From Patescibacteria group bacterium (GTDB taxonomy: Bacteria; Patescibacteriota; Patescibacteriia; UBA2591; CALHIP01): DNA of 61,804 nucleotides. This document shows positions 14,996-56,083 of the stretch, one piece after another (position 1 is the first letter of the stretch; each line of letters opens with the position of its first letter). Made by a program: the position numbers and the translations under genes. The stretch spans positions 1 to 61,804 of the forward strand of contig JAOACJ010000003.1 in NCBI GenBank assembly GCA_026417895.1, written 5' to 3'. Under the pieces are notes generated by a model. That model had not been told where the DNA came from and searched no databases. It saw only the letters and a program-made list of their open reading frames with translations.

Positions 14996-16687
<1,692 letters not shown>

Positions 16688-21780: not shown

Positions 21781-21806
21781 TTTCGAATTTTTAAAAATTT
21801 TATTTT

Positions 21807-25455: not shown

Positions 25456-25556
25456 AAAATGATTTTTATAAGAGATTTTTATTTATTATACTACTTCCGC
25501 AAAAAGGGGGAAATGATATAATTGTGGAAAACAGCTTTTTTGATGATGTCTTGTTT

Positions 25557-26012
25557 ATGAAATTAATTACTATCAATAAAAAAGCATATCATAATTATGA
25601 AATCTTGGAAACCTATGAAGCAGGTATTGTTCTAACCGGTCCAGAGGTGAAATCGGTTAAAGCCGGGAAAATTGATCTGACAGGTAGTTATGTTACCCTT
25701 GACAAAAGCAGTATTCCTTGGTTAACTAATCTTAACATTGCTCCTTATCCACCAGCCAAAGGTGATCAAGAAAATTATCAACCATCGAGACCACGAAAAT
25801 TACTCCTTAAGAAAAAAGAGATTGCCTCTTTGATTGGTAAGACAAAAATGAAGGGCTTGACAATAATACCTTTAAAAGTGTATAATAAACATGGTTTTAT
25901 TAAAATTGAAATTGGTTTAGGGCGAGGTAAGAAAAAGTTCGACAAGCGAGAGGAGATAAAGAAAAGAGAATTGGAAAGAAAAATTAAAGAAGAATTAAAA
26001 TATAAAATCTAA
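25557..26012 (+). CDS. smpB: SsrA-binding protein
   Basis: NKKAYHNYEILETYEAGIVLTG.EVKS, RKLLL.K.EI, G.GKK..DKRE. The track's GTG 25524 lies upstream of the likely start site of the TG-A-TATAAT promoter (25517-25522). Confidence 0.97.
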   Translation: MKLITINKKAYHNYEILETYEAGIVLTGPEVKSVKAGKIDLTGSYVTLDKSSIPWLTNLNIAPYPPAKGDQENYQPSRPRKLLLKKKEIASLIGKTKMKGLTIIPLKVYNKHGFIKIEIGLGRGKKKFDKREEIKKRELERKIKEELKYKI

Positions 26013-26025
26013 AGAAAGTAATGAC

Positions 26026-26401
26026 GGGGATGTAATAAAATCGAAAGGAAAGGAAACTGTAGAATGGCTTTCCGGTTGAGAGCGCCGAGAATGTTCTCGT
26101 CAATTATAGATGCCAATCAATATGCTTATGCGGTTGCTTAAAAATTAAGTAACCGACTTTGATCTAAAATTTCTGCTATTAGGTCAAAGTATTAAATCAA
26201 GTTCCGCTAAAAATAAAGAGCGGAGCAAGCAGAATTGGACATTTTGACTGTCTGAGTCAAAATGTCGACAAGAATCAGACTAGGTTTCGGAAGGTTTTGT
26301 CTGGTTTTCACTTCCGAACTAAAGAGATAACCAGACTATGAAAGTAGAAGTTCTCAGTTTTCTTCTCCTTGACGTGGGTGAGAAGCCCGCCATCTCCACC
26401 A
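26026..26401 (+). ncRNA. ssrA: tmRNA
   Basis: Acceptor GGGGATG/CATCTCC with G3.U70 and ACCA; resume context TATAGAT|GCC; tag ANQYAYAVA* at 26112-26141; adjacent to smpB. Confidence 0.93.
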
Positions 26402-30229: not shown

Positions 30230-30616
30230 TTAGCTAAAATTTTTATTTTTTTTCTTTTGATAATCTTCAATTGCTGCCCGAAGTGCCTGTTCAGCCAAAA
30301 CCGAACAATGAATTTTCTGGGGCGGCAAACCACCGGCTTGTTCAGCCACGGCTTGATTAGATATTTTTAAAGCTTCATCTAAAGTTTTTCCTTTAATCAT
30401 TTCCGTCAAAATTGAACTGGTGGCAATAGCGGCGGCACAGCCAAAGGTCATAAAACTTGCCTCGGTAATTACATTATCCTTAACCTTGATGAAAAGTTTC
30501 ATGACGTCGCCACAGGCTTTATTACCTACTTCACCTACCCCATCAGCCTCTTTCATTTCGCCAAAATTACGAGGTTTGCGAAAATGGTCCATTATTTTAT
30601 CACTATAGTAAGCCAT
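30230..30616 (-). CDS. iscU: Fe-S cluster scaffold IscU/NifU
   Basis: YSDKIMDHF..PRN.G, GNKACGD, FGCAAAIA.SS, K.HCSVL. Confidence 0.95.
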   Translation of the reverse strand: MAYYSDKIMDHFRKPRNFGEMKEADGVGEVGNKACGDVMKLFIKVKDNVITEASFMTFGCAAAIATSSILTEMIKGKTLDEALKISNQAVAEQAGGLPPQKIHCSVLAEQALRAAIEDYQKKKNKNFS

Positions 30617-30623
30617 ATAAAGA

Positions 30624-30674
30624 TTAGTTATTAGTTATTAGTTATTTGGTTATTTGGTTATTGGTTATTGGTTA
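30624..30674. repeat. Heptamer/octamer array spanning the iscS stop and the iscS-iscU spacer
   Basis: TTAGTTA x3, TTTGGTTA x2, TTGGTTA x2. Confidence 0.92.
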
Positions 30675-31870
30675 ATTTTTTTATAAAAAGGAGAGATTGA
30701 ACGCAATTTTTTTATTATCTGGGGGAAAATTTTCAAAAAATAATTAATCTCTCTCTCTTTAGTAAACCGGCCTAAGGTTAGACGTAAAGAAGAATGCGCT
30801 TCTGCATCGGAAAGCCCGATCGCTTTTAAAACATGTGATGGGCGAAGACTTTTCGATGAACAGGCTGAACCAGTTGAGGCAGCGATACCAACCTCATTTA
30901 AGGCAAGAACCATTGCTTCGCCCTCAACACCCTCAATGGAAAAATTAAGATTATTTGGCAGGCGTAGATGGGGATGGCCATTAAGACGAACATCTTTAAT
31001 TTTTTCAAAAATACCCTTGATCATTTTTTCTTTTAACTGGATTAATTTTTGATATTCTTCATTCATTGTCTCTCGGGCCAATTCAACGGCTTTGGCAAAG
31101 CCAACAATGCCGGCAACGTTTTCGGTCCCAGAACGAATTCCTTGTTCATGTCCACCACCATGTAAGAGTGGTTCAATTTTTACGCCCCGACGAAGATAGA
31201 GTAGTCCAATACCCTTTGGTCCATATAATTTGTGGGCTGAGGCAGAAAGTAAATCAACTCCCAACTCATCAACATTAATTGGTAGGTGACCAAAACTTTG
31301 AACAGCGTCCGTATGAAAGTAAATTGGTATTTTGATACCTATTTCATACCTTCTGGCTCTAATTTTCTTAACTATTTTCCCAATTTCTGCAATCGGCTGA
31401 ATCGTTCCGATTTCATTATTAGCCTGCATTATTGAAATTAAAATTGTTTCATTAGTGATGGCTTTTTCGACTTCATTGAGATTAACCAAGCCATTCCTAT
31501 CCACTGGCAGATAAGTAATTTTAAACCCTCTTTTTTCTAACCAATGACAAGGCTCTAAAACGGCGTGATGTTCAATTTGTGAAGTAATAATATGCTGACC
31601 AAATTTTTCGTTGGCTAAAGCCACTCCTTTAATGGCTAAATTATTGGACTCAGTCCCACCACTAGTAAAAATAATTTCCTCTTTTTTAGCGCTAATAAAA
31701 TTAGCTATTATTTCGCGGGATTTTTCAATGGCCTCCTTAGCTTCTTGTCCTAATAAATAAATAGTTGAAGCGTTACCATATTTTTTTTTCAAATACGGCA
31801 ACATTGCGACCAAAACTCTCTTATCTAGTGGTGTAGTTGCCGCATTATCGAAATAAACTTTTATTTTCAT
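30665..31870 (-). CDS. iscS: Cysteine desulfurase
   Basis: YFDNAATT, FTSGGTESNN, HTDAVQ, SAHKLYGPKG, RSGTEN, STGSACSS. Confidence 0.96.
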   Translation of the reverse strand: MKIKVYFDNAATTPLDKRVLVAMLPYLKKKYGNASTIYLLGQEAKEAIEKSREIIANFISAKKEEIIFTSGGTESNNLAIKGVALANEKFGQHIITSQIEHHAVLEPCHWLEKRGFKITYLPVDRNGLVNLNEVEKAITNETILISIMQANNEIGTIQPIAEIGKIVKKIRARRYEIGIKIPIYFHTDAVQSFGHLPINVDELGVDLLSASAHKLYGPKGIGLLYLRRGVKIEPLLHGGGHEQGIRSGTENVAGIVGFAKAVELARETMNEEYQKLIQLKEKMIKGIFEKIKDVRLNGHPHLRLPNNLNFSIEGVEGEAMVLALNEVGIAASTGSACSSKSLRPSHVLKAIGLSDAEAHSSLRLTLGRFTKEREINYFLKIFPQIIKKLRSISPFYKKINQ

Positions 31871-38589: not shown

Positions 38590-39309
38590 TCACTTTTTAG
38601 CTAAAGCAACAAGGTTAAAGCTTTTAAGCCAGTTTGACTTTTGGCCTCTTTCTTCATAAAAAATATCTTGAACTTTAAAATGAACTTTTTCTAAGATTTT
38701 TTTTAACTCTTTTTTGGTAAAAGCGTGGTAAAATCTTTGAATAATTTCGTTTGAAGAAAGATGCCAGGGGACAAAGAAATCTTTCCAACCTAAATCTTGA
38801 TATAATTTTGGTTTTTTTAAGCGCTGAATGAAATTATGAAAAAATAATTTTGGTTGCCAAAGATTCCAGCAAGTTAAAAAAAGATAGCCGTCAATCTTCA
38901 AAACACGATACGCCTCACTTAGTACCTTAATCTGTAATTTTTGCGAGGGGAGGTGTGGTAAAACGGCTATCATAAAAACTGCGTCAAATTCTTCGTCTCG
39001 AAATTCTAAATTTAAAGCGTCCATCACCAAAAATTCTGACCTTGTCATTGGGAATTTCTTTTTCGCCATTTCTACCAACCTCTCTGAGTTATCAATCCCT
39101 ACATATTCAATGCTTTTTTCTTTGAGTAAATCATAAAGTCTTCCATTGCCACAGCCAATATCTAAAATTTTATCCCCATCGTTTAGATAAGCCAAAAATA
39201 ATTTCATCACCCCCCAAGGCCATTGTCTGGTTTGAGAAAATTGCTCAGCAATTTTCTCATAATTTTTCTTTGTCTCCTCTAAAATTCTCTGAGCTATTTC
39301 TTCTCTCAT
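38590..39309 (-). CDS. SAM-dependent methyltransferase, Trm9/ALKBH8-like
   Basis: YEKIAEQFSQTR.WPW, LDIGCGNGR, IAVL.HL, LTCW, DFFVPW, RFYH.F...EL and NLVALAKK parallel yeast Trm9 blocks (recalled). Confidence 0.75.
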   Translation of the reverse strand: MREEIAQRILEETKKNYEKIAEQFSQTRQWPWGVMKLFLAYLNDGDKILDIGCGNGRLYDLLKEKSIEYVGIDNSERLVEMAKKKFPMTRSEFLVMDALNLEFRDEEFDAVFMIAVLPHLPSQKLQIKVLSEAYRVLKIDGYLFLTCWNLWQPKLFFHNFIQRLKKPKLYQDLGWKDFFVPWHLSSNEIIQRFYHAFTKKELKKILEKVHFKVQDIFYEERGQKSNWLKSFNLVALAKK

Positions 39310-39383
39310 ATTTTTATTATAATCTATAGAAAATTTTTGAAAATATGTTAAAATGTCTAAAATAAAATTAACTTATCCCCTCT

Positions 39384-40517
39384 ATGACCTTTAAAAAAAA
39401 TCGTCATTTTCTCAAAGCCTGGGCAACTTTTACCGGAACAATTGTTGGTGTCGGTATCTTTGGTCTGCCTTATGTGGCGATGAAAGCTGGTTTTTTTGTC
39501 GTTCTTTTCTATTTTCTCGCCATTATTTTTTTAGCCATTATTGTTCATTCTCTTTTAGGTGAGGTTGCCCGCGATACCCATAAGGTAGCACGCATTCCTG
39601 GTTACGCCGAAGAATATATTGGCCCAAAAGCAAAGAATTTTGCTTTTATTGTTTCCTCTTTGTCTCTAGTTGGTGCCTTACTTGCTTATTTGATTATTGG
39701 TGGCGAATTTCTATATCTTTTTCTGAAACCATGGTTAGGTGGCTGGCCAATTTTCTATATCCTCCTCTTTTTTCTTTTTGGTGCTTTTTTAATCTATCGC
39801 GGCATTGAGATTATTTCTCGTTTTGAATTAGTTATGCTAATTATTTTTGTTTTTCTTCTTCTTTTTTTCCTCTGGCGAGCCATTCCTTTTATCAAATTTG
39901 AACATTTTACGACTTTTAATTCTCGTTTTCTCACCTTGCCTTATGGTGTTGTCCTTTTTGCTCTTTGGGGTATTGCTTTGATTCCTGAAGTTAAAGAAAT
40001 GGTTGAAAGAGACCAGGAAAAATTAAGAAAAGTAATTATTTGGGGTATTTTGACCGCTGCTTTCTGTTATCTAATTTTTATTTTTGCCATTTTAGGCGCC
40101 TCTGGTCTAAAAACTTCAGAAAATGCTATTTCGGGTTTTGCTTTTGCTATTGGTGACCGCATTATTGCCATTGGTTATCTTTTTGGTTTGATTACCACTT
40201 TCACTTCTTTTATCACTTTGGGTTTAACATTAAAGAAAATTTTTTGGTATGATTTTAAAATTTCGCCAAAAATTTCTTGGGCCTTAACTTGTTTTATTCC
40301 CTTAACTTTATATTTCATCGGCGTGAAAAATTTCATTGAGGTTATTGGTTTAACTGGCGCGATTGCTTTGGGTTTAGAAGCAATCTTGGTAATTTTTATC
40401 TACAAAAATTTCATCCAACAAAGATTTCAACGACCAACGCCTTGGTGGCTTTATCCATTAGTTATTGCTTTGCTGATCGGCCTTGGTTTTGAAATTATCT
40501 ATCTTCTTTCAAAATAA
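39384..40517 (+). CDS. Aromatic amino acid (Mtr/TyrP-like) permease
   Basis: GTIVGVGIFGLPY, about 11 TM segments, LTLPYGVVLFALWG, ITTFTSF. Confidence 0.85.
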   Translation: MTFKKNRHFLKAWATFTGTIVGVGIFGLPYVAMKAGFFVVLFYFLAIIFLAIIVHSLLGEVARDTHKVARIPGYAEEYIGPKAKNFAFIVSSLSLVGALLAYLIIGGEFLYLFLKPWLGGWPIFYILLFFLFGAFLIYRGIEIISRFELVMLIIFVFLLLFFLWRAIPFIKFEHFTTFNSRFLTLPYGVVLFALWGIALIPEVKEMVERDQEKLRKVIIWGILTAAFCYLIFIFAILGASGLKTSENAISGFAFAIGDRIIAIGYLFGLITTFTSFITLGLTLKKIFWYDFKISPKISWALTCFIPLTLYFIGVKNFIEVIGLTGAIALGLEAILVIFIYKNFIQQRFQRPTPWWLYPLVIALLIGLGFEIIYLLSK

Positions 40518-40573
40518 AACATCTAATTAATTTCAAAATTCGAAAAGTTTTTCTTAAGCCCTTTTTATTTTTT

Positions 40574-40602
40574 TTGACAATCTTTTAAATTTTTATTAAA
40601 AT
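40574..40602 (+). promoter_or_regulatory. Sigma70 promoter of elp3 (predicted leaderless mRNA)
   Basis: TTGACA(40574-40579)-17-TAAAAT(40597-40602); ATG at 40610. Confidence 0.65.
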
Positions 40603-40609
40603 AAAAAAA

Positions 40610-42193
40610 ATGACTTCGCACAAACAAAAAATTATCAAAATTATTCAAGAACTCTCTCAAAAAAAGTTTCAATCTGGCGAGAGTTTTTTATCTTTGTTCA
40701 GAAAATTAACTAAGAAATATCAAATATCACCCCCAAGTTATGTCGAAATTCTCTCGTCTTATAAATTACTGCGATCGCAGAAAAAAATAAGACGTTGTTT
40801 ATTTTTTGAGGAAATGTTAAAAAAAAGACCGGTTCGCTCTCTTTCTGGTGTAGCCGTTGTCTCTGTTTTGACCAAACCTTATCCCTGTCCTGGCCAATGC
40901 CTTTATTGTCCAACTGAAAAGGGCTTTCCAAAAAGTTATTTGGCTGGCGAGCCAGCCGCCGAAAGAGCTCGTCTTTTGAACTATAATCCTTATTTACAGG
41001 TTAAAAAAAGGATTGAAACTTTACAAAAAACAGGACATTCAACCGACAAAATCGAATTGATTATTATCGGCGCCTCCTGGAGCGCTTATCCAAAAAGATA
41101 TCAAGAATGGTTTATTAAAAGATGTTTTGATGGCGCTAATTTTTCAGCAAGTAAAAAATTAACGGAGGCACAGAAAAAAAATGAAAAAGCAAAAAATAGA
41201 ATTATTGGTATTAGTGTGGAAACACGACCGGATTTAATCAGTTTAAAAGAAATAAAAAGAATGCGGGAATTGGGAATAACGAAGGTTGAGTTAGGTGTCC
41301 AAACACTCGATGAAAAAATTTTAACTAAGAATCAGCGTGGTCATGGTTTAAAAGAAATTGTTGAAGCAACAAAATTGTTGAGAAATGCTGGATTCAAAAT
41401 TTGCTATCATCTTATGCCCGGACTTTATGGCTCGACACCCCAAAAAGATTTGGTAGTTTTTAAAAAATTATTTTCTGATTCAAATTTTCGACCAGATTAC
41501 TTAAAAATTTATCCTTGTGTGGTAACCAAGGGTTCAAAACTTTATCAATTATGGAAAAGAGGAAAATACCAACCTTACGACGATAAAACTTTAATCAATT
41601 TATTGGTCCAGATAAAAAAAATTGTCCCTCCTTACGTGCGAATCATCCGAATCTTCCGCGATATTCCTTCACCAAAAATTTTTGGCGGAACAAAGATCTC
41701 CAATTTACGCGAGGTTGTCAAAAAAGAAATGGCAAAAAGGGGGTTGAAATGTCAATGCATCCGTTGTCGTGAAATTAAAAATTTAAAATTAAAAATTAAA
41801 AATTTAATTCTGGTCAAAAGAGAATATCAGGCTAATAATGGTAAAGAAATTTTTCTTTCTTTCGAGGATAAAAAAAATGACAAGATTCTTGCTTTTCTTC
41901 GTCTCTATCTGCCTCAATCTTCTATTTTAAACTCTATCTTCAAGGTTCTCAAAAAATCAGCTATCATTCGTGAACTCCACAGCTACGGCGAAATAGTAGA
42001 AATCGGTAAAAGAAAAAAGGGGGCCACCCAGCATCAAAACTTAGGCAAAAAACTTGTCCGCAAAGCCGAGCAACTGGCAAAAAAAATTGGTGCTAAAAAA
42101 ATAGCTGTTATTTCCGGCGTCGGCGCTCGCCAATATTGGCGAAAAATTGGTTATAGACTTCAACAAAGTTATATGGTCAAAAATATTGGATAA
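40610..42193 (+). CDS. elp3: Elp3-family radical SAM/KAT tRNA U34 carboxymethyltransferase
   Basis: RSLSGVAVVSV, CPGQCLYCP, PKSYL.GEPA, ETRPD, VELGVQT, PDYLKIYP, RIFRDIP, C.CIRCRE, IRELH.YG, QH..LG, VISGVG.RQYWRK.GY. Confidence 0.95.
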   Translation: MTSHKQKIIKIIQELSQKKFQSGESFLSLFRKLTKKYQISPPSYVEILSSYKLLRSQKKIRRCLFFEEMLKKRPVRSLSGVAVVSVLTKPYPCPGQCLYCPTEKGFPKSYLAGEPAAERARLLNYNPYLQVKKRIETLQKTGHSTDKIELIIIGASWSAYPKRYQEWFIKRCFDGANFSASKKLTEAQKKNEKAKNRIIGISVETRPDLISLKEIKRMRELGITKVELGVQTLDEKILTKNQRGHGLKEIVEATKLLRNAGFKICYHLMPGLYGSTPQKDLVVFKKLFSDSNFRPDYLKIYPCVVTKGSKLYQLWKRGKYQPYDDKTLINLLVQIKKIVPPYVRIIRIFRDIPSPKIFGGTKISNLREVVKKEMAKRGLKCQCIRCREIKNLKLKIKNLILVKREYQANNGKEIFLSFEDKKNDKILAFLRLYLPQSSILNSIFKVLKKSAIIRELHSYGEIVEIGKRKKGATQHQNLGKKLVRKAEQLAKKIGAKKIAVISGVGARQYWRKIGYRLQQSYMVKNIG

Positions 42194-43690
42194 TTCTATT
42201 GACAGATTCCTCTAAGGGTAAAGCAGTGTTAATTTTAAGATAATTTTCTTTTTCTTGAATCGGTTCAAATTCTTTTTTTATTTTTTGATAAACTTGCCAA
42301 TTTGCTTCAGAAATTGATTTCTCTCTATCTCTCTTTTCTAATCTTTTTTTGGCGACTTTTTTAGGGCAATAAAATTCAATAACAAAATAGGAAATTTTTA
42401 GTTTTCTGACTAAATCTATAGCTAATTGACGATAAATTTTTAAAGAAAAGGTGGCGTCTAAAATCACCTTCTTACCTTGTTTGAGAAATTTTTCCGCCTT
42501 TCTCATCATTTTTTGATAAACTAATAACTTGCTTTTAAAATCATATTTTGGTTTTTGAAAAATCTGACGACGGATAAGATCGCTATCTAAAATTTTCGCC
42601 TTAATTTTTTTGGCTAAAAGTTTTAAGCGTGTACTCCGACCGATGCCTGGTAAGCCAGCGCCAAGAATTAAAATCGGTTTTTGCCATTCCTGAACATATT
42701 TTCTAGCCAATCTAAAATATCTCTGGCTAATTTTTTGATAAAACAATTTTCGCCACCATGACAAATTTCTTTCCCCCAACCGGAAACTGAGAACTTTACC
42801 ACAAACATAGGCGCGATAACATTTATAAAATAAAAGCAGTTTTGTCAAATTCTTCTCATGAGAAGATTCAATATATTTTTTGACAAAATAATCTGATAAA
42901 TCTTTTCGGTTTAAAAAATCTAAATCCATAGCCAAAAAGGCAATTTCGTTGACCACGTCTTGATAGCGAAAACGATCATTAAATTCAATGCAGTCGAAAA
43001 TATAAATTTTCTTTGGCGTGACAAAAATATTTCTCGTGTGGAGATCGCCATGACAGTCGCGAATCTTTTTCTCACCAATTCTTTGTTGAAATAATTTCTT
43101 ATTTTTTTTAATAAATTCTTCCACTGATTTTTTAATGAAATAAAAATCTTTTTGAGAAACTGTTCTGCCAATAAATGATCGGGTCTGGGAAAAATTTTCC
43201 TGCCAATTTTTTTGAATAATTTTTAAAGAACCGAAATAAGAAATTTTTTTTGAAGTTTTGGCTTTTTGATGAAATTTAGCAACGATTTTGGCTAATTGAT
43301 CAATGATTTTTTTGTTAATTTCTCCTTTTTTAACCCGACGATCCATTAAATATTTTTGCGGAATTTCTTTCATCTTTAAAACATAATCAATAATCTTACC
43401 TTGGCCACCTAATTTTAATTGACCATTTTTCTCAATCAGAGGTATTACTTCTAAATACATTGCTGGTGATAACCGTTGATTTAATTTCAATTCCTGAAAA
43501 CAAAAAAATTTTCGTTTAGCTAATGTCGTGAAATCTAAATAGCCATAGTTAACTGGCTTTTTTATCTTATAAGCAAATTGGCCGGTTAAAAAATATCAGA
43601 AATATAGGTTTGCAGATGTTTAATTTTTTTTACTTTGTGAGGATAACTCTTGGGATTATTGAAAAAATTTATAATTTTTGTCCTTTTCAT
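42177..43690 (-). pseudogene. Aminoglycoside-phosphotransferase-like/P-loop kinase fusion with a 1-nt frameshift near the 5' end
   Basis: ATG 43690 gives MKRT...HLQTYISDIF*. Restoring one T in the T6 run (plus-strand A 43588-43593) yields DIFLTGQFAYKIKKPVNYGYLDF, joined to the 437-aa ORF (DCHGDLH, FDCIEFNDRFR..D, GLPGIGRST). Confidence 0.85.
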
Positions 43691-46277: not shown

Positions 46278-47537
46278 ATGAAAAATTTAACCAAAACTGA
46301 TCCAAAATTGGCCAAAATTATTAGAAATGAAATTAGGCGGCAGCAAAATGGTCTAGTTCTAATTGCTTCGGAAAATTTTGCCTCTCAAGCAGTTTTAAAG
46401 GCTCTTGGCTCGCCTTTAACTAATAAATATTCTGAAGGCTATCCAGGACGAAGATACTATGGTGGCAATCAATTTATTGACGAGATAGAAAATTTAGCCA
46501 TTGAAAGAGCGAAAAAACTTTTTTTACCAGAATCAGAGTGGAAAAATTGGCAAGTTAATGTCCAGCCATATTCTGGTTCGCCGGCTAATTTTGCTGTTTA
46601 TGCGGCTCTACTTCAGCCAGGTGACAAATTAATGGGTATGACCCTTTCTCATGGTGGTCATTTAACCCACGGCCATAAAGTTAGTTTTTCGGGAAAATTT
46701 TTCACTCCCATCCAATACGGTCTCGATCCAAAAACTCATCTTTTAAATTACGAGGAAATTTTAAAATTAGCTAAAAAGGAAAAGCCAAAAATAATTGTCT
46801 GTGGCTATACGGCTTATCCGAGAAAAATTGATTTTAAAAAATTTGGCCAAATTGCCAAAAAGGTTAATGCCATTTTGATGGCCGATATCGCTCACCTGGC
46901 CGGTTTAATTGCTGCGAGAGTCTATCCATCTCCTTTTCCTTACGCTGATGTTGTCACGATGACTACTCATAAAACCCTGCGAGGACCAAGGGGGGCGATC
47001 ATTTTTGCTAAAAATAAATATGCTGAAGCCATTAACAAAGCTGTCTTTCCCGGCCTTCAGGGCGGGCCACATGATAACAATACCGCCGCGATAGCCGTGG
47101 CTTTAGGCGAAGCCCTAAAACCAAGCTTTAGAAAATATGCACGCCAAATTATCAACAATGCTCGCGCCCTTGTCAAATCATTGGAAAAAAATGGTTTGAA
47201 AATTATCAGCGGTGGCACTGATTCTCATTTACTTTTAATTGATCTAACCGAGACAGGAATTTTTGGCCGAGAAGCAGAAAAATTATTAGAAGAGGTCTGT
47301 ATTTATGTCAATCGAAACACCATCCCTTACGATCAGCGTTCGCCATTTGATCCTTCTGGTTTGCGTTTAGGAACGCCTGCTCTGACTACCAGGGGTATGA
47401 AGGAAAAAGAAATGAAATTGATTGGTAAAATGATAGCGAAAATAATTTTAAACCCAAAATCAAAAAAGATAAAAAAAGAGATAAAAAAAGAGGTTCAGAA
47501 TTTAACAAAAAAATTTCCTCTTTATCAAAATTTATGA
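46278..47537 (+). CDS. glyA: Serine hydroxymethyltransferase
   Basis: LIASEN, LTNKYSEGYPGRRYYGG, GGHLTHG, TTHKTLRGPRG, FPGLQGGP, SGLRLGTPALTTRG. Confidence 0.99.
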   Translation: MKNLTKTDPKLAKIIRNEIRRQQNGLVLIASENFASQAVLKALGSPLTNKYSEGYPGRRYYGGNQFIDEIENLAIERAKKLFLPESEWKNWQVNVQPYSGSPANFAVYAALLQPGDKLMGMTLSHGGHLTHGHKVSFSGKFFTPIQYGLDPKTHLLNYEEILKLAKKEKPKIIVCGYTAYPRKIDFKKFGQIAKKVNAILMADIAHLAGLIAARVYPSPFPYADVVTMTTHKTLRGPRGAIIFAKNKYAEAINKAVFPGLQGGPHDNNTAAIAVALGEALKPSFRKYARQIINNARALVKSLEKNGLKIISGGTDSHLLLIDLTETGIFGREAEKLLEEVCIYVNRNTIPYDQRSPFDPSGLRLGTPALTTRGMKEKEMKLIGKMIAKIILNPKSKKIKKEIKKEVQNLTKKFPLYQNL

Positions 47538-47603: not shown

Positions 47604-48143
47604 TCATCTTTGTTGCCAGCTAAATAAACAACCGCAATATTTTTGATGATAAAAATTAAATTTTTTAGCCAAAACTCGAGATTTTGACCAAAAATTTTTT
47701 TTATTTTCTTCAGTCAAAGAAAAGAAATTCAAGCCAAATTTCTGAGCAATTTTATTGCCTAAATGATTGATTAAAAATAATTTTTTATAAGGACTGATGC
47801 CTAAAGTTGTCGCAAAGGTATCATAGTTAAGTGTCTTGGCGAGTTGAGCGGTTTTTTCTAATCTCATTTGAAAGCAAATTTCACATCTTTTACCGCCTTC
47901 TGGCTCTTTTTCTAAACCTTTTATTTGTTGCCACCAAAAAGCTGAGTCATCCTCACCAGCTAAAAAATCTAAATGATAAATTTCTGCCATTTTTTTTGTC
48001 GCTTCTAATCTTCTTTGGTATTCTTCGGGTGGATAGATATTAGGATTATAAAAATAAAGAAAGGTTTTTTCTGACCGGTTTCTAAAAAAATCAGCTAAAT
48101 AAATTCCGCAAATTGCACAACAAGTGTGAAGGACTAATTTCAT
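47604..48143 (-). CDS. queH: Epoxyqueuosine reductase QueH
   Basis: LHTCCA.C, NPNIYP.EEY.RR, EPEGGKRC..CF..RL, Y.QKYCGCLFS; follows queA. Confidence 0.92.
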   Translation of the reverse strand: MKLVLHTCCAICGIYLADFFRNRSEKTFLYFYNPNIYPPEEYQRRLEATKKMAEIYHLDFLAGEDDSAFWWQQIKGLEKEPEGGKRCEICFQMRLEKTAQLAKTLNYDTFATTLGISPYKKLFLINHLGNKIAQKFGLNFFSLTEENKKNFWSKSRVLAKKFNFYHQKYCGCLFSWQQR

Positions 48144-48145
48144 AA

Positions 48146-49186
48146 TTAAAAGATAAACATCGCATCACCAAAAGTATAAAAGCGATATTTTTTACGAACG
48201 GCCTCTTGATAGGCTTTTAAAAGAAAATTTTTACCGGCAAAGGTAGCCACTAAAATCAGATTTGTTGAGCGAGGTAAGTGAAAATTTGTAATTAAACCAT
48301 CAATAAATTTAAATTGGTAGCCAGGATAAATAAAAAGGTCAACAAATTTTTTGCCCGCTGTTAACCAACCATTTTTTGCAAAACCTTCCAACGTTCGAAC
48401 AACGGTCGTCCCGACAGCAATAATTCGCCGTCCCTCTTTTTTTGCTTGATTAAGACGTTGAGAAGTTTTTTTCTCAATCACTGCGAATTCTTCAGGAATG
48501 GCATCGGGAATTTTTTCCCCTTTAATTGGTTCAAAAGTAGCGCGTCCAATATGAAGAGTAATTTTCTCAAACCGAACACCTTGATTTTTCAATTTTTGAA
48601 TTAACTTTTTTGTAAAGTGAAAACCGGCTGTTGGCGCAGCAGCTGAGCCAATTTCTTCAGCATAAACAGTTTGGTACTGCTTTCTTAAAACTGAATCTTG
48701 AATTTTTGGCTGAATATAAGGAGGGGTAGGTGTTTTGCCTAATTGATAAATTAGTTTTTCTAAATTTTCTCCTTTTTGGCTAAATTTTATCAATTTTTCT
48801 GGCTTTAAATCTTTTATAATTTCTGCTTCAAGTTTTGAAGAAAAAATTAATCTTTGACCAACCTTTAATCTTGGTCGACCGATGACTCGCCATAAATTTT
48901 CTCTTAAAGGCTGAGAGAATTCTTTTTTTTCTGGTCTTAATAAAATTATCTCTACCCGTCCACCGCTCGTTTTTCGACCATGAAGACGAGCCGGAAAGAC
49001 TTTTGATCGATTCAAAACTAAAACATCTCCTTCTTTTAAAAATCTTCCAATTTCAAAAAAATAATGATGACCAATTTTTTTATTTTTTCTCTCTAAAACC
49101 ATGAGACGGGAGTGGTCTCTTGGATAAATTAACTTTTGAGCAATTAAGTTTTTTGGCAATGAATAATTAAAATCTTCAAGGTTCAT
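48146..49186 (-). CDS. queA: SAM:tRNA ribosyltransferase-isomerase
   Basis: FNY.LP..LIAQ, PPYI, YQTVYA...GSAAAPTAGFHF, AVGTTVVRTLE, TNFHLPRST, YRFYTFGDAM. Confidence 0.97.
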   Translation of the reverse strand: MNLEDFNYSLPKNLIAQKLIYPRDHSRLMVLERKNKKIGHHYFFEIGRFLKEGDVLVLNRSKVFPARLHGRKTSGGRVEIILLRPEKKEFSQPLRENLWRVIGRPRLKVGQRLIFSSKLEAEIIKDLKPEKLIKFSQKGENLEKLIYQLGKTPTPPYIQPKIQDSVLRKQYQTVYAEEIGSAAAPTAGFHFTKKLIQKLKNQGVRFEKITLHIGRATFEPIKGEKIPDAIPEEFAVIEKKTSQRLNQAKKEGRRIIAVGTTVVRTLEGFAKNGWLTAGKKFVDLFIYPGYQFKFIDGLITNFHLPRSTNLILVATFAGKNFLLKAYQEAVRKKYRFYTFGDAMFIF

Positions 49187-49244: not shown

Positions 49245-50057
49245 ATGAAATTACTGCTCGGTGAACCTATTGCGGAAAAAATTTATCAAGAAATAAAAGA
49301 AGAAATGGCTAGGTTTAAAATAAAACCTGGCCTAGCGGTGATAATGGTTGGCAAAAACGAGGCTTCACAAGTTTACGTTGGATTAAAGGAAAAAACAGCT
49401 AAAAGACTAGGTTTTACTTTTAAAAAATTTTTATTTTCGTCAAAAATATCAGAGAAAAAAATTATTAAACTGATTAAAAGTCTAAATAAAAATAAAAAAA
49501 TTCATGGCCTTATTGTCCAATTACCCCTACCTAAAAATTTGCATCCTTTAAAAATTATACGTTCAATTTTGCCGGAGAAAGATATCGATGGGTTTCATCC
49601 GAAAACAAAATTTATTTCTCCGATTCATCAAGCAATTTTAAAACTTTTATCTTTTTATAAAATTAAAATAAAAAATAAAAAAATAGCAATTTTGGCTAAT
49701 TCTTTAATTTTCGCCCAACCGTTGGCTAGAATGCTAAGAAATAAAGGAGCGAAGGTCAAAATAATTCTCAAAAATAACTATTCCCCATACTCGCCCGAAT
49801 ATAGAAAATGTCTAAAAAGGGCTGACATTTTAATTATTGCTATTGGAAAACCGAAATTTTTAAAAAAAGAAATGGTCAAAAACAAAGCTGTCATTGTTGA
49901 TATCGGCTATTCACGAGTTAAGAAAAAAGCCGTTGGTGATGTTGATTTTGAAAGTTGTGCGCAAAAAGTTAGCGCTCTTTCTCCGGTGCCAGGCGGCGTT
50001 GGTCCTTTAACTGTGGCTTATTTAATGAGAAATGTTTTAAAAGCCGCAAAAAATTAA
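49245..50057 (+). CDS. folD: Methylene-THF dehydrogenase/cyclohydrolase (divergent)
   Basis: ASQVYV..K, GLIVQLPLP, KDIDGFHP, VDIG, VGDVDF, PVPGGVGPLTVA. Confidence 0.92.
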   Translation: MKLLLGEPIAEKIYQEIKEEMARFKIKPGLAVIMVGKNEASQVYVGLKEKTAKRLGFTFKKFLFSSKISEKKIIKLIKSLNKNKKIHGLIVQLPLPKNLHPLKIIRSILPEKDIDGFHPKTKFISPIHQAILKLLSFYKIKIKNKKIAILANSLIFAQPLARMLRNKGAKVKIILKNNYSPYSPEYRKCLKRADILIIAIGKPKFLKKEMVKNKAVIVDIGYSRVKKKAVGDVDFESCAQKVSALSPVPGGVGPLTVAYLMRNVLKAAKN

Positions 50058-50136: not shown

Positions 50137-51377
50137 TCAAAGTAGGGTGGTATTATTTCTATATTTTTCTAGTCCTTTTTTTAAAATCTTCATTGCTTCT
50201 TTAAGTTTTGAACTTGATAAAACAAAGGCAATGCGAAATTCGTCTCTACCACCCTTTGGCGTGGCATAGAAACCAGTCCCTGGGGCAACTAAAACTGTTT
50301 TTCCTTGATCGGCAAATTTCGTCAACAACCACTCAGCAAAATGATCCGAATCTTTGAGCCATGGAATTTTGACGAATAAATAAAAAGCCCCTTTCGGCTC
50401 AACAGTAATTACCTCGGGAATAGTCCTCATCTCTTGAAAGACTATATCTCTTCTTTTTTTATATTCGAAAATAATTTTTTTAAGATATTTCTGAGAATTC
50501 TCTAAAAGAGGAACAACGGCTAACTGTTCAACCATTGGTAAAGAAAGTCTGGCTTGGGCAAATTTTATCGCCGACTCAATAACTCTTTTATTCTTACTGG
50601 CTAAAACACCAATTCGCGTCCCACAGGCCGAGAATTTTTTGAAACACTGTCTACTAAAATTACCCACTGAGAAATCTCTGGAAAATTCATCATTGAATAA
50701 TGTTTTTCGCCATCATAAACAAACTCACGATAAGTCTCGTCGGTTATAATAAAGAGGTTATATTTTTTAGCAATTTTAGAAATTATGTTCAATTCCTCTT
50801 TCTTATAAACAGTACCGGTCGGATTGTTTGGATTACAAATAATGATACCTTTTGTTTTTCCATTAATTTTTCTTTCAATTTCTTTTCTATCGGGCAAATG
50901 AAAACCATTTTCTGCTAAAGTCTTAATTGGTTTTAACTTAATACCAGTCATTGAGGCATAACCATTATAATTAGTATAGAAAGGTTCAAAAACAATAATT
51001 TCTTCGCCTGGTTGACAAATGGTAGCAAAGGCAAATAGAATGGCTTCACTAGCACCAATCGTCACCACCACCTCTGAAAGGCTAAAATCAATTTTTACCC
51101 CCTTAAAATATTTCTGTCAAGCCCTTTTCACTGCAAGTAAACCATCAGAAGGTGTATAAGCCAAAACTTTTTCTTTGAAGTTTCTAATTCTCGCTAAAAT
51201 TTCTTTTGGCGTTTCTAAGTCCGGTTGACCAATATGAACCTCAAAGACTTTAATACTTTTCTTTTTTATTTTTTCTAAAAGTGGCACAAATTTTCTGATC
51301 GGTGAGAATTGGGTCTCCTTAGCGCGAAACAAGATCTCTCTTCTGACTAAATTTTTATATTTTTCAGGCATATGCAT
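50137..51377 (-). pseudogene. PLP-dependent class I/II aminotransferase, split into three ORFs
   Basis: IGQPD, Y.PS.G, VT.GASEA, EPFY.NY, NPNNPTG, DETYRE, SKKFSACG.RIG, PKGAFY. There is an in-frame TGA at 51119-51117 and a 1-nt deletion in the A6 run (plus-strand T 50635-50640). Confidence 0.9.
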
Positions 51378-52280: not shown

Positions 52281-53018
52281 TCAATAACCAATAGCAAGTC
52301 GCTCAATTAAAAAACTGTGGAAACCTTTACTCTTCATTGCTTCTTGGGTCCTTTGATAATCATATTCTACCCGATGATATTCTAAAGTCAAAAATTCGTT
52401 GTCAAAAATAATAAAACTGGCTTTTGGATTTTGATCACGTGGCTGGCCAACTGAACCGGGATTAATAATATAACGAGAATTTTTTTCAAATTTTAGAAAC
52501 GTTTTATCCGGCGGAAACCGAAATTGATAAATTTTGTTATCTCTTTTTTCAAAAATCATAGGCAAATGAGAATGGCCAACAAAACAAATCTTTTCTTGAA
52601 AAAAACAGAAATTTTCTTTGGCTTGATAAATTTCCATTAGATATTCCCAGATTGGATCACGAATTGAACCATGGGTTAGAATAATATTTTCTTCTGGTTT
52701 TAAAGTTAAGGGTAGATTTTCTAAAAATTTTTTGTTTTCTTGAGAAATTTCAGAAGTATTAATTTTTATTGCTAAAGCAGCATAAGGATTAAAAAATTCT
52801 ACGCCAATTTTTTTGATAACTGCTAAATCATGATTACCAGCTAAAGAAATTATTTTTTTCTTTCTAATCAATTCAATACATTCATTCGGATTTGGCCCAT
52901 AACCAACAATATCACCTAGGTGCCAAATTTTTTCAATTTTCTTTTTTTCTAATTCAAAGATTACTGCCTTACAAGCTTCTAAATTTGAATGGATATCTGA
53001 TAAAATACCTATTTTCAC
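52281..53018 (-). CDS. Calcineurin-like metallophosphoesterase
   Basis: SDIHSN, LGDIVGYG, GNHD, THGS, GHSH, INPGSVGQPRD; GTG start overlaps the upstream TGA. Confidence 0.93.
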   Translation of the reverse strand: MKIGILSDIHSNLEACKAVIFELEKKKIEKIWHLGDIVGYGPNPNECIELIRKKKIISLAGNHDLAVIKKIGVEFFNPYAALAIKINTSEISQENKKFLENLPLTLKPEENIILTHGSIRDPIWEYLMEIYQAKENFCFFQEKICFVGHSHLPMIFEKRDNKIYQFRFPPDKTFLKFEKNSRYIINPGSVGQPRDQNPKASFIIFDNEFLTLEYHRVEYDYQRTQEAMKSKGFHSFLIERLAIGY

Positions 53019-53569
53019 TCTTTTATTTTGATGGTCGTAAAAATATAAATCTCTGTTTCAGGATCACACCAGGCATCAGCTGGTAGTCCTGCCTTACGGA
53101 GACATAAAACATTTAGAAATTCTTCTAAATTGTAATTAAATTCTTTCGCCACTTCTGGTAAAAAGGTGCCGCCTTGAAAACCGCGTTTGATAATAACACC
53201 ATGCTCACCTAATTTGATCTGAGAGGGATGAGAAATTTTTTTTAGAGGAGAAAGGATGGAAATTTCGATTTTTATTTTTGATAATTCTTCTAAAGTGATG
53301 GGTAAAAAGCGGTTGTCTCCGACAGCCGCCGCCACAGCCATTCTCGCGACTGCTTCCCCTAAAGGATATTGGGGTTCTAAATGACCAATACAACCTCGTA
53401 ATTCTTCATCTTTTTTTAAAGTAACAAAAACGGCTCTTTTTTCTTTCAGTTTTTCAGATCCACTAGTTTGAATTTGAGGTATTTTTCTATATTTCAAATA
53501 AAATTCAATTGAATTTCGCGCTATTTTCAACAATGCTTTTCTTTCTTTTTCTGAAAAATTATTTTCCAT
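53015..53569 (-). CDS. AMMECR1-domain protein (AmmeMemoRadiSam protein A-like)
   Basis: FVTLKK..ELRGCIG, AA..D.RF.P, EISILS, GTFLPEVA, LC.RKAGL..DAW. Confidence 0.92.
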   Translation of the reverse strand: MENNFSEKERKALLKIARNSIEFYLKYRKIPQIQTSGSEKLKEKRAVFVTLKKDEELRGCIGHLEPQYPLGEAVARMAVAAAVGDNRFLPITLEELSKIKIEISILSPLKKISHPSQIKLGEHGVIIKRGFQGGTFLPEVAKEFNYNLEEFLNVLCLRKAGLPADAWCDPETEIYIFTTIKIKE

Positions 53570-53584
53570 TTTTTTAATTATATC

Positions 53585-54481
53585 TTAATCAGCAAAACGA
53601 TAAAGACCATATTTTTTGGCTAAATTAATGGCTGCTTGATATTCCTTTAAAATAATACGACGAGAAAGCTCTGGACATTGAAAAGCCTTATAGCAAGGAT
53701 AATATTGGTCCATAATATTAACAAATGTTTCTTTTGAAATTTCTTCAGCTAAAAATTTCATAATTTTTTCTGTCCCGGCCAAATCATTTGGTAGAATTAA
53801 ATGTCGAACAATCAACCCTTTTTTAGCCACACCATTTTCAGTAATTAAATCTCCCACCTGCCGATGCATTTCTTTGATTGCTTCTTTCATTATTGCAAAA
53901 TAATTTGGAGCTGAAGAATATTTTATTGCTCTTTGATTATCGAAATACTTTGCATCGGGCATATAAATATCAATAATTCCCTCTAAAACTTTTAAAGTTT
54001 CAACCGAATCATAGCCATTTGAGTTATAAACTAAAGGAATTTTTAATTTTTTCTCAATGGCTATTTCTAAGGCTTCTAAAATTTGTGGCACTTGTGGGGT
54101 GGGAGTAACTAAATTGATATTATGACAACCAATTTTTTGTAGATAAATCATTATTTCAGCTAAATTTTTAGCAGAAACCTCCTGACCATAATCTAATTGA
54201 GAAATTTCATAATTTTGACAAAAAATACAAGCCAAATTGCATGAAGTAAAAAAAATTGTCCCCGAGCCATAAACACCAACCAAAAATTTTTCTTCGCCAA
54301 AATGAGGATGAAAGGATGAAACTTTTGCTTTTCGACCTAAGCGACAAAAGCCTTTTTCATTTTTTAATCGATTAATCTTACATTTTCTTGGACAGATTTG
54401 GCAAGGATTTAAAAAAGCAATAGCTCTTTCAACCCTCTTTCTTAACTCTTTCTTCGACAAATTAAGATAAGAAGGAAACAT
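53585..54481 (-). CDS. Radical SAM protein, PflX-like family
   Basis: C.ICPRKC..NR, HFGEE, GSGTIFF, CNLACIFCQN, NINLVTPT, DIYMPDAKY, VRHLILP, NIMDQY.P. Confidence 0.9.
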   Translation of the reverse strand: MFPSYLNLSKKELRKRVERAIAFLNPCQICPRKCKINRLKNEKGFCRLGRKAKVSSFHPHFGEEKFLVGVYGSGTIFFTSCNLACIFCQNYEISQLDYGQEVSAKNLAEIMIYLQKIGCHNINLVTPTPQVPQILEALEIAIEKKLKIPLVYNSNGYDSVETLKVLEGIIDIYMPDAKYFDNQRAIKYSSAPNYFAIMKEAIKEMHRQVGDLITENGVAKKGLIVRHLILPNDLAGTEKIMKFLAEEISKETFVNIMDQYYPCYKAFQCPELSRRIILKEYQAAINLAKKYGLYRFAD

Positions 54482-54492
54482 TGATAAAGATT

Positions 54493-55005
54493 TTAATTTT
54501 TAATTTTTAATTTTCTAAATTTGTTAATTTCGTAGATAGCAATGCCAGTCGCCACTGCTACATTTAAAGATTCTTTCTTGCCATACATTGGCAGATAAAT
54601 AATTTTATCAGCTCTTTTTAATAAACTCTGACAAACGCCCTTGACTTCGTTGCCAACAATTAAAAGTAAAGGAAATTTTGGTCTTAATTTTGTATAGCAA
54701 ATACTTTTTTTGGTTTGTTCTAAAGCAACAATAAAAAAATCTTCCTTTTTTAATTTTTCCACGATTCGCCAACTCTGCCAACAGTGTTCCCAAGGAACTA
54801 TTTTTTCGGCACCTAAAGCTGTCTTGTGTATTTTGATATTTAATTCTCTTTCTCTTTCTTTTCCTGTTTGCCGGCTAGCAAGAGAGGTAATACCGCCAAG
54901 ATAAATTTTATCAATACCAGCTGCTTCAGCAGTCCGAAAAATTGCCCCAACATTAAAAATCGAACGAAGATTATCTAAAAGAAGATAAAATCTTTGGTCG
55001 GCCAT
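54493..55005 (-). CDS. TrmH/SpoU-family RNA 2'-O-methyltransferase
   Basis: LDNLRS.FNVGAIFRTA.A.G, KTALGAE, GNEVKG, LPMYGKKESLNVAVA.GIA.YE. Confidence 0.93.
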   Translation of the reverse strand: MADQRFYLLLDNLRSIFNVGAIFRTAEAAGIDKIYLGGITSLASRQTGKERERELNIKIHKTALGAEKIVPWEHCWQSWRIVEKLKKEDFFIVALEQTKKSICYTKLRPKFPLLLIVGNEVKGVCQSLLKRADKIIYLPMYGKKESLNVAVATGIAIYEINKFRKLKIKN

Positions 55006-56068
55006 AAAGTATCTTCAATGTCTTGGTTTTATCTAAATTGCTTATTTTGGCTCTACAGAGAGCTCTTTCTAAAATAGAAATTGATTGATCATATTGTTTT
55101 TTATTAACCGGATAAGGTGTACCATCTTTACCGCCATGAGCAAATGAATATCGGACCGGGTCATGAAAACTCGGCTTAGCCCCATAGATTAACTCCGAAA
55201 TTAAAGCTAAAGCGCGTAATGTTTTTGGACCAATGCCTTGATAAGAAACCAACTCTTCATAATTTTTTGGTTGTTTTTCGTGAGCAATAAATAAATTTTT
55301 TATCATTCTTTTTTCTCCTTCTGGTTTCAATGGAATCCAGTGATATTTGGGCATATTTAAGACTCTAATTTTTTTAAAATCTTTTAAGAAATTTTGGAAA
55401 GGGGCACGAACAATTTCGGTAGAAATTTTTCTTGTTTTCTCACTCTCCTTAGCTACTAAATTTAGTGGTTTTGTTTTAAAATCGCAACAAACGGCTGAAT
55501 GTGGTTCATTAACAAAATTAAAATTAGATGAATTAAGAGATAGCCAGTGATAGCGTCGAGCCATTTGAATTTCTGGATTCATTCCTTGTTGAATGACGGC
55601 CCAGTCTCCTTGCTTAGTAAAAATGAAAGTATGATGATAAATTTGAAAACCATCTTGTAAGCAAGAATTATCAATTTTGGCTGACATTTTTGAAGCATAA
55701 ATAAGTTTTGGAACAAATTTCAGAGAAAATTTCTCGCCATATTCCTCAATTTCTGATGGCGCTTTTCTTGAAGTTTTTCCCTTACCGCCAACGACAAAAA
55801 GGCCAAAAGATTTTTCTGTCCCTCGTAATGCTTCCTTGATCGCCCCGCAAACAGTTGTACTCAAACCAGAAGAATGCCAATCAAAGCCTAGAAGACAGCC
55901 AAAAGACTGAAACCAATAAGGATCAGCAAGGCGAAATAAAATTTCTTTTTGACCAAATTCTAAAATCATCGCTTCAATGATGGCGCGGGCTAATTTTTTC
56001 ATTCTGGCAAAAAGCCAGCTTGGCATCAAACCCCAATGAAGTGGTAAATTGGCAATTCCTGTTCGCAT
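54971..56068 (-). CDS. DUF763 family protein
   Basis: MRTGIANLPLH.G..P.WL, DP.WFQSFGC.LGFDWHSSG.ST, K.DNS..QDGF..YHH, G.GPKTLRALAL.SE.IYG, YSFAHGGKDG.PYPV. Confidence 0.9.
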   Translation of the reverse strand: MRTGIANLPLHWGLMPSWLFARMKKLARAIIEAMILEFGQKEILFRLADPYWFQSFGCLLGFDWHSSGLSTTVCGAIKEALRGTEKSFGLFVVGGKGKTSRKAPSEIEEYGEKFSLKFVPKLIYASKMSAKIDNSCLQDGFQIYHHTFIFTKQGDWAVIQQGMNPEIQMARRYHWLSLNSSNFNFVNEPHSAVCCDFKTKPLNLVAKESEKTRKISTEIVRAPFQNFLKDFKKIRVLNMPKYHWIPLKPEGEKRMIKNLFIAHEKQPKNYEELVSYQGIGPKTLRALALISELIYGAKPSFHDPVRYSFAHGGKDGTPYPVNKKQYDQSISILERALCRAKISNLDKTKTLKILYGRPKILSSFR

Positions 56069-56083
56069 AGTTATTTTTCAAAA

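Follow-up and report, generated by a model that had tools for sequence, protein, structure and literature searches.

An Elp3 gene paired with a Trm9-like methyltransferase gene in Patescibacteria and Dehalococcoidia: a candidate bacterial mcm5U34 module

Accurate decoding depends, in all life, on modifications at carbon 5 of the wobble uridine (xm5), which textbooks assign by domain: 5-methoxycarbonylmethyluridine (mcm5U), made by Elongator and Trm9, to eukaryotes and archaea, and 5-(carboxymethyl)aminomethyluridine ((c)mnm5U), made by MnmE and MnmG, to bacteria. In this work we analyse a stretch of 61,804 nt (about 62 kb; hereafter the window) of one genome of the Patescibacteria, or candidate phyla radiation (CPR), contig JAOACJ010000003.1, in which an initial annotation had seen a gene for Elp3 near one for a methyltransferase of the Trm9/ALKBH8 type and had proposed a candidate pathway to mcm5U at wobble position 34 (mcm5U34). 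The family profile of the methyltransferase, its active site and its linkage to elp3 all support this core reading, and we consider it probable that Elp3 and a bacterial enzyme orthologous to Trm9 and to the methyltransferase domain of ALKBH8 constitute a two-gene mcm5U34 module, conserved in many CPR lineages and in Dehalococcoidia.

Formation of 5-carboxymethyluridine (cm5U34) from acetyl-CoA and S-adenosylmethionine (SAM) is established for archaeal Elp3, whilst the support for the enzyme of Dehalococcoides mccartyi (DmcElp3) consists of tRNA-stimulated acetyl-CoA hydrolysis. The occurrence of Elp3 in bacteria was described in a 2020 review as limited to a single, particular clade of anaerobic bacteria (Dehalococcoides; PMC7663514), and in a 2026 paper as extending to ‘numerous bacteria’ (PMC13315578). 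As for the methylation that follows, Trm9-Trm112 of Haloferax volcanii makes mcm5U, with Trm112 required in vivo, and in Sulfolobus solfataricus the genes for Elp3 and Trm9 are clustered (PMC6144793); yeast Trm9 is insoluble or inactive without Trm112. Bacterial Elp3 and eukaryotic and archaeal Trm9 were known already, and what is new here is a bacterial member of the pathway and, possibly, a Trm112-independent variant of it. In a full-text literature search no paper turned up that describes a Trm9 from bacteria, Elp3 in CPR or bacterial mcm5U. The ‘bacterial ALKBH8’ of PMC4051686 denotes AlkB oxygenases and not the methyltransferase.

Elp3 and the methyltransferase of the window

The two genes lie 1.3 kb apart, and both open reading frames (ORFs) were found where the initial annotation had placed them:
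38590-39309, minus strand: candidate Trm9-like methyltransferase, a class I methyltransferase ORF of 239 aa
40610-42193, plus strand: Elp3, 527 aa, radical-SAM plus GNAT/KAT (lysine acetyltransferase) domains

The identification of ORF 40610-42193 as a full-length Elp3 is secure. It scores 596 bits against TIGR01211, whose curated cut-off is 350, and carries the Pfam domains Radical_SAM, Radical_SAM_C and Acetyltransf_1 (GNAT), so that the intact Elp3 with CxxxCxxC motif and KAT domain that had been reported stands. The radical-SAM cluster motif reads C93-x3-C97-x2-C100, the acetyl-CoA motif QHQNLGKKL, and the zinc motif C381-x-C383-xx-C386 is of the bacterial/archaeal type, which Lin et al. 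describe as conserved across bacterial and archaeal Elp3 (PMC6367351). The protein also has a basic N-terminal extension of the archaeal/eukaryotic type, with 18 Lys or Arg in residues 1-75; such an extension is absent from DmcElp3 and plays a role in tRNA binding by archaeal Elp3 (PMC6367351). Amongst solved structures, the Elp3 of Methanocaldococcus infernus (6iaz; 1e-134, 453 bits) is a close match, with that of D. mccartyi (5l7j; 1e-124, 420 bits) slightly farther.

A minus-strand ORF of 437 aa (42177-43490) shares 17 nt with the end of the Elp3 gene, stop codon included. Its N-terminal half is APH-like and its C-terminal half a P-loop kinase (AAA_33), with no match to a solved structure. 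A role as a Kti12/PSTK-type cofactor was rejected for it: only the generic P-loop half of Pfam KTI12 was matched, the domain order is wrong, with the P-loop C-terminal after the APH-like domain, and a homolog occurs in 0 of the 80 related loci described below.

For the methyltransferase, Pfam recognises generic domains only (Methyltransf_11, Methyltransf_25 and similar), and all NCBIfam matches, UbiE and DVU_1556 among them, fall far below their cut-offs. Its affinity emerges on comparison with Trm9 itself. A phmmer search of solved structures places Yarrowia lipolytica Trm9 (5cm2_Z) second, at an E-value of 2e-13, in an alignment that runs from the N-terminal S-x-T-R..PW helix through the C-terminus, the identity to Trm9 being about 27-29%. 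When the query is a profile of the bacterial family (A1, an alignment of 31 sequences), 5cm2_Z becomes the best match in the PDB, with 102 bits and an E-value of 2e-28, followed by two structures at 89 and 75 bits. Aligned by hhalign with 18 named fungal Trm9 proteins collected with the Yarrowia sequence (A2), the same profile gives a probability of 100 and an E-value of 1.9e-44 over 205 columns, that is, nearly the whole of both families, whilst a control with an unrelated class I methyltransferase gives 1.8e-6 over 90 columns of Rossmann core.

The reverse search leads to the same grouping. A hidden Markov model (HMM) built from fungal Trm9 only was run against 4,297 ORFs and proteins, taken from the window itself, from 87 related loci and from the homolog list. 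The window methyltransferase scores 107.4 bits, the 80 orthologs found in GTDB genomes 54.8-123.5 bits (median 87) and five Dehalococcoidia proteins 63-70.5 bits; everything else stays at or below 33.5 bits, leaving a gap of more than 20 bits below the weakest family member. A second methyltransferase of the window, which is TehB-like and below the NCBIfam cut-offs (21184-21837, minus strand), served as an internal negative control and has no match to the Trm9 HMM. The methyltransferase thus groups with Trm9 by HMM search in both profile directions. Moreover, the five motif blocks from which the likeness to yeast Trm9 had been proposed all hold in Yarrowia Trm9 and in the alignment of 18 fungal sequences (Y..IA..FS.TR..PW, D.GCGNG, (V/C)W, D..VPW and R(Y/F)YH). 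Judged on these comparisons, in which the resemblance goes well past anything expected by chance, the enzyme is Trm9-like and not a generic methyltransferase.

The first place in the phmmer search belongs to 3sm3, an uncharacterised methyltransferase of Methanosarcina mazei. It was rejected as the true closest relative, lacking the Trm9 active-site residues and reaching 24.9 bits against the Trm9 HMM.

The NCBI name of family members is ‘class I SAM-dependent methyltransferase’, several records read ‘UbiE’, and some Joint Genome Institute (JGI) records read ‘alkB family protein 8’, a label that evidently stems from automatic orthology assignment. There is an annotation gap here, the NCBI naming being generic and a curated model of the family absent. 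The family itself is large: its profile, searched against 1.84 billion cluster representatives, matches 1,931 of them at an E-value of 1e-30 or less, some of which may be eukaryotic Trm9.

The active site can be compared with the mutagenesis of yeast Trm9 by Létoquart et al., who addressed conserved residues around the SAM methyl group (PMC4678810). Required both in vivo and in vitro were R29, D72, H116, W145, W168, R241, Y243 and N271, whilst H24, K31, H115, R122, E148, Q149 and D270 were not required (PMC4678810). In the joint alignment all eight required residues have their counterparts in the window protein, namely R28, D73, H119, W148, W182, R192, Y194 and N232. Counted over the window protein and its 80 orthologs (n=81), the equivalents of R29, D72 and W145 are each present in 81/81, that of H116 in 79 and that of N271 in 77; the W168 position is Trp in 66 and Phe in 13. 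At the dispensable His115, 64 of the 81 sequences keep the HH pair, and 16 have Pro, Asn or Gln.

Conservation of the gene pair

A scan with the family alignment, over one genome per GTDB species, returned at least 514 relatives, the best 80 of which (loci L001-L080) were analysed for gene context. They are labelled Peregrinibacteria, Peribacteria, Gracilibacteria, Uhr-, Magasanik-, Falkow-, Lloyd- and Abawacabacteria, Paceibacterota and others, whilst the labels of a few, whose reliability is uncertain, place them outside CPR. By tblastn, 61 of the 80 loci have Elp3 no farther than 10 kb from the methyltransferase. In 47 of them the pair is divergent and directly adjacent, less than 400 bp apart, and nine more have it divergent at up to 2.5 kb. 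Among the 19 loci that lack Elp3, the DNA on the side in question is shorter than 2 kb in nine. Clustering of the ORFs yields only two broadly conserved families, the methyltransferase (80 loci) and Elp3 (59 loci), the next one being present in at most 18 of the 80. The co-occurrence with elp3 on which the initial annotation had made its proposal depend is therefore seen in 61 of 80 species-representative genomes, with Elp3 as the sole conserved neighbour. Since the two genes stay linked at protein identities as low as about 30% and in two phyla, whilst the remaining neighbours turn over, we read the linkage as functional coupling. Over a large part of CPR, Elp3 has a Trm9 ortholog as its constant partner in the genome, and at least 61 species-level genomes hold the pair.

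The Dehalococcoidia repeat this arrangement. The sequence of DmcElp3 was rebuilt from the PDB alignment and seven Dehalococcoidia-type Elp3 contexts were read. In D. mccartyi CP019867 a methyltransferase of 224 aa (L081, 7283-7957) lies divergent from Elp3 and 44 bp away from it; four other loci have the same divergent pair, one is without the pair and one without upstream DNA. The D. mccartyi methyltransferase aligns with fungal Trm9 at an hhalign E-value of 5.7e-19 and scores 70.5 bits with the Trm9-only HMM, and the five Dehalococcoidia methyltransferases share the R, HH, VW, VPW, RYY and N motifs. The source organism of the crystallised DmcElp3, the structural model for bacterial Elp3, has had an unremarked Trm9-like neighbour all along.

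The window, with a GC content of about 33%, has its closest relatives in metagenome-assembled Patescibacteria (CPR) genomes, one of which (L001) shares the local gene order, with a methyltransferase 66% and an Elp3 72% identical to those of the window. Three further features lie between the start codons of the two genes:
39316-39343, minus strand: promoter-like site TTTTCA-16-TATAAT, directly upstream of the methyltransferase start codon (consensus scan)
39384-40517, plus strand: amino-acid permease of the Trp/Tyr permease family (Pfam), between the methyltransferase and Elp3
40574-40602, plus strand: promoter-like site TTGACA-17-TAAAAT, 11/12 to consensus, in the 92-nt spacer 5′ of Elp3 (pattern match alone)

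Among the 80 loci, a permease homolog between the two genes is present only in the window's two closest relatives, L001 and L002; the permease is therefore a recent lineage-specific insertion, outside the conserved module. In the same consensus scan the promoter-like sites of the region are no more numerous than in shuffled sequence, and the evidence for the one at 39316-39343 is weak.

The next commonest neighbours of the methyltransferase-Elp3 pair are serine hydroxymethyltransferase and FolD, in 18 and 15 of L001-L080 respectively. Both are also present in the window:
46278-47537, plus strand: serine hydroxymethyltransferase
49245-50057, plus strand: FolD

Their proximity may be residual synteny or may reflect a loose tie to one-carbon/SAM supply.

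The predicted pathway and its alternatives

By orthology, the stand-alone Elp3 would carry out the first step, placing a carboxymethyl group on C5 of U34 from SAM and acetyl-CoA to give cm5U34. In the second, the Trm9-like enzyme would methyl-esterify the carboxyl with SAM, yielding mcm5U34, as we infer from the profile similarity, the conserved catalytic residues and the gene linkage taken together; this step would probably proceed without Trm112. Two other genes of the window might feed the pathway, the second of which the initial annotation had listed and is present:
30230-30616, minus strand: IscU (Pfam NifU_N)
30665-31870, minus strand: NifS/IscS-type cysteine desulfurase (Pfam Aminotran_5; TIGR03402 NifS, 531.6 bits against a cut-off of 530.75)

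IscU and IscS (30230-31870) would be the likely source of the Fe-S cluster of Elp3, and of the sulfur for any thiolation, although this link is one that we only infer.

The absence of a Trm112-like gene from the window had been remarked at the outset, and a Pfam scan of the small ORFs, which covers 62 kb of the genome, agrees. Nor was a Trm112-like ORF found in the 87 related loci, by a motif scan of all 87 and ORF clustering of 80. The interface itself offers a further indication. In the Yarrowia complex Trm112 covers six hydrophobic residues of Trm9; at the position of one of them, V59, 58 of the 81 bacterial sequences have Lys or Arg, and at that of another, F78, the bacterial family has Asp, Glu, Ser, Lys, Thr or Asn. 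The Trm112-contact residues P110, F116 and D117 are kept. Because the two core hydrophobic contacts (V59 and F78) have become charged or polar, and because a Trm112 gene was not found in the loci, the bacterial enzyme is probably soluble and active on its own. A Trm112 gene could conceivably lie elsewhere in the genome from which the window comes.

In the Dehalococcoidia a conserved zinc-ribbon protein of 70-75 aa (CPxC ... CWKC) is encoded directly downstream of the methyltransferase, all five ORFs being on the minus strand of their loci:
L081, 6423-6650, minus strand: zinc-ribbon ORF
L082, 6387-6605, minus strand: zinc-ribbon ORF
L084, 3967-4185, minus strand: zinc-ribbon ORF
L085, 3691-3909, minus strand: zinc-ribbon ORF
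L087, 4005-4217, minus strand: zinc-ribbon ORF

Neither Pfam nor NCBIfam has a match to this protein, which might be a stand-in for Trm112 or an alternative partner.

Several points weigh against the interpretation of the pair as an mcm5U34 module. The 80 loci are the ones most similar to the query and not a random sample. Foldseek ranks 3sm3 first and Trm9 second, in a fold comparison that does not discriminate among Rossmann methyltransferases, and the neighbour-joining clade that unites Trm9 with the CPR family and with the proteins from Dehalococcoidia has a bootstrap of only 16/100, with saturated distances and few outgroups. Two of the residues required in yeast vary in some orthologs, the R241 equivalent being present in 70/81 and the Y243 equivalent in 55/81, and the window methyltransferase has at the His115 position a Pro (P118), a minority state found in 7/81. 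Trm112, the obligate partner of Trm9, was found neither in the window nor in the 87 loci. On the side of the literature, the 2020 review sees no direct evidence that bacteria with Elp3 contain xcm5U34 derivatives and lists no known products downstream of bacterial Elp3 (PMC7663514), and trm9 mutants of H. volcanii divert cm5U to other products, so that the bacterial end product could differ (PMC6144793).

Some of these points favour, to begin with, an explanation in which the methyltransferase is coupled to Elp3 and the product is not mcm5U, the enzyme acting on another atom, intermediate or substrate, or the final nucleoside being of the 5-carbamoylmethyluridine (ncm5U) type or yet another. 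Gene linkage shows coupling and not chemistry, what a bacterial Elp3 makes in vivo has never been seen (PMC7663514), the H. volcanii mutants rapidly turn cm5U into other species (PMC6144793), and the equivalents of R241 and Y243 vary in part of the family, as does the His115 position. Even so, R29, H116, W145 and N271, which are the residues placed around the carboxyl and the uracil ring of cm5U (PMC4678810), are near-invariant in the bacterial family; the similarity to Trm9 is full-length and includes the N-terminal helix that bears R29; and an archaeal Trm9 with the same motifs does make mcm5U (PMC6144793). This explanation is accordingly unlikely, if still to be taken seriously.

It is quite improbable that the methyltransferase is inactive or impaired in the window organism, through its PH motif or the missing Trm112, and that the pathway stops at cm5U or ncm5U. 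The initial annotation had itself cautioned that the HH motif of Trm9 reads PH here (IAVLPHL), and P118-H119 is indeed what the protein has. The caution touches the dispensable His115 only, because the equivalent of the essential His116 is retained as H119 and the H115A change is tolerated in yeast, where the mutant keeps about 25% of the specific activity and a wild-type (zymocin) phenotype (PMC4678810); besides, the 16 of 81 orthologs with Pro, Asn or Gln at this position are otherwise well conserved. The ORF is intact, keeps all eight essential residues, and gives a confident AlphaFold monomer model, with a predicted local distance difference test (pLDDT) of 95. As to the partner, without which yeast Trm9 is insoluble or inactive and which H. 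volcanii needs in vivo, its hydrophobic contacts have turned charged across the family, as expected of a protein that is soluble alone, and the 62 kb covered leave room for a Trm112 gene elsewhere. That the enzyme belongs to the ordinary small-molecule methyltransferases, or to unrelated ones of class I (UbiE/MenG type), and is near Elp3 by coincidence, is strongly disfavoured to the point of being hardly credible, for whilst Pfam and NCBIfam give it only generic or below-threshold matches, several records call its relatives ‘UbiE’ and Foldseek ranks many unrelated methyltransferases closely, the NCBIfam matches are all far under cut-off, the Trm9-only HMM sets the family apart by more than 20 bits, and the linkage to Elp3 holds to about 30% identity and in two phyla as other neighbours change.

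The two-gene mcm5U34 module is, for these reasons, the reading that we prefer, and its concrete prediction is mcm5U in bacteria. A wider proposal, that Patescibacteria and Dehalococcoidia make mcm5U34, possibly also its 2-thio derivative (mcm5s2U34), by a stand-alone Elp3 and a Trm112-independent Trm9 which replace MnmE/MnmG, is advanced here tentatively, the balance leaning somewhat against it in this full form. If it were true, mcm5U34, documented so far only in eukaryotes and archaea, would be bacterial as well; the pair would be an old unit, mobile or vertically inherited, that is shared across the domains; and with the CPR enzymes the Elongator/Trm9 pathway would gain a simple, soluble model. 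Human disease has been linked to this enzyme family, and a Trm9 that does without Trm112 would make it easier to study by structural and enzymological means.

Neighbouring genes and comparison with known systems

The ‘thiouridylase-like’ gene which the initial annotation had seen at the window end (ORF 61385-61804, minus strand) is a C-terminal fragment, open to the window end, that contains a CxxC motif and an RNA-binding domain, NFACT-R_2. NFACT-R_2 is its only informative family match, and no full-length homolog is present in the fetched loci; any PP-loop domain would fall outside the window. Genes for queuosine synthesis are all on the minus strand, TGT at 14996-16171, QueH at 47604-48143 and QueA at 48146-49186. 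In the Dehalococcoidia-type loci L081, L082, L084, L085 and L087, QueH is found past the far end of the methyltransferase gene, at a distance of 1.3-1.7 kb, or 2.2-2.4 kb when counted from the start of Elp3. Genes for anticodon modification may be loosely clustered. The window holds five tRNA genes (Asn-GTT, Ser-GGA, Leu-CAG, Asp-GTC and Arg-CCG), none of them with U34, and SmpB followed immediately by the tmRNA gene (tag ANQYAYAVA) at 25524-26401, plus strand. A same-strand run at 52281-57112 (minus strand) comprises a metallophosphoesterase, AMMECR1, a radical-SAM protein that weakly matches the AmmeMemoRadiSam enzyme, a SpoU-type 2′-O-methyltransferase, DUF763 and RtcA (RNA 3′-phosphate cyclase), and may form a cluster for the repair or modification of RNA. 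The gene for a class I/II aminotransferase is broken up into three successive minus-strand ORF pieces (50137-50667, 50601-51071 and 51117-51377), either as a frameshifted pseudogene or through assembly errors, and a fused restriction-modification enzyme of 1,167 aa, Eco57I/MmeI-like, is encoded at 57549-61052, minus strand.

Set beside Trm9 and ALKBH8, the window enzyme is likewise a class I Rossmann methyltransferase of the same size, with the same ordered motifs and the eight required residues, and it is encoded together with the Elp3 that would make its substrate. It differs in being bacterial, in its identity of about 27-29%, in the change of His115 to Pro and, as regards ALKBH8, in having neither AlkB nor RRM domains. 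Unlike in the Trm9-Trm112 complex, the V59 and F78 positions of the bacterial family are charged or polar, and a Trm112 gene was not found in the loci. By contrast, 3sm3, in spite of being the best single-sequence and Foldseek match, is without the Arg-bearing N-terminal helix of Trm9 and without its His, Trp and Asn active-site residues.

Similar in design, going by its description, is the archaeal Trm9 of H. volcanii (HVO_1032), where a prokaryotic stand-alone Elp3 and a Trm9 ortholog give mcm5U (PMC6144793); that enzyme, however, needs Trm112 in vivo. The Elp3-Trm9 cluster of S. solfataricus was noted in one archaeon, whereas in the bacteria analysed here linkage is the rule (61/80), typically as divergent adjacent genes. 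DmcElp3 (5l7j) is, like the Elp3 of the window, a stand-alone bacterial enzyme with the same domains and zinc motif and is flanked by a divergent gene for a Trm9-like methyltransferase, the difference being the long basic N-terminal extension, which the window Elp3 has and DmcElp3 does not. No MnmE or MnmG gene is present in the 62-kb window. The MnmE/MnmG system, with MnmC or MnmM, resembles the Elp3-methyltransferase pair in its target, C5 of U34, and in its presumed role in the decoding of NNA/NNG codons, whilst its enzymes are unrelated and draw on folate, flavin adenine dinucleotide (FAD) and glycine to arrive at cmnm5U or mnm5U.

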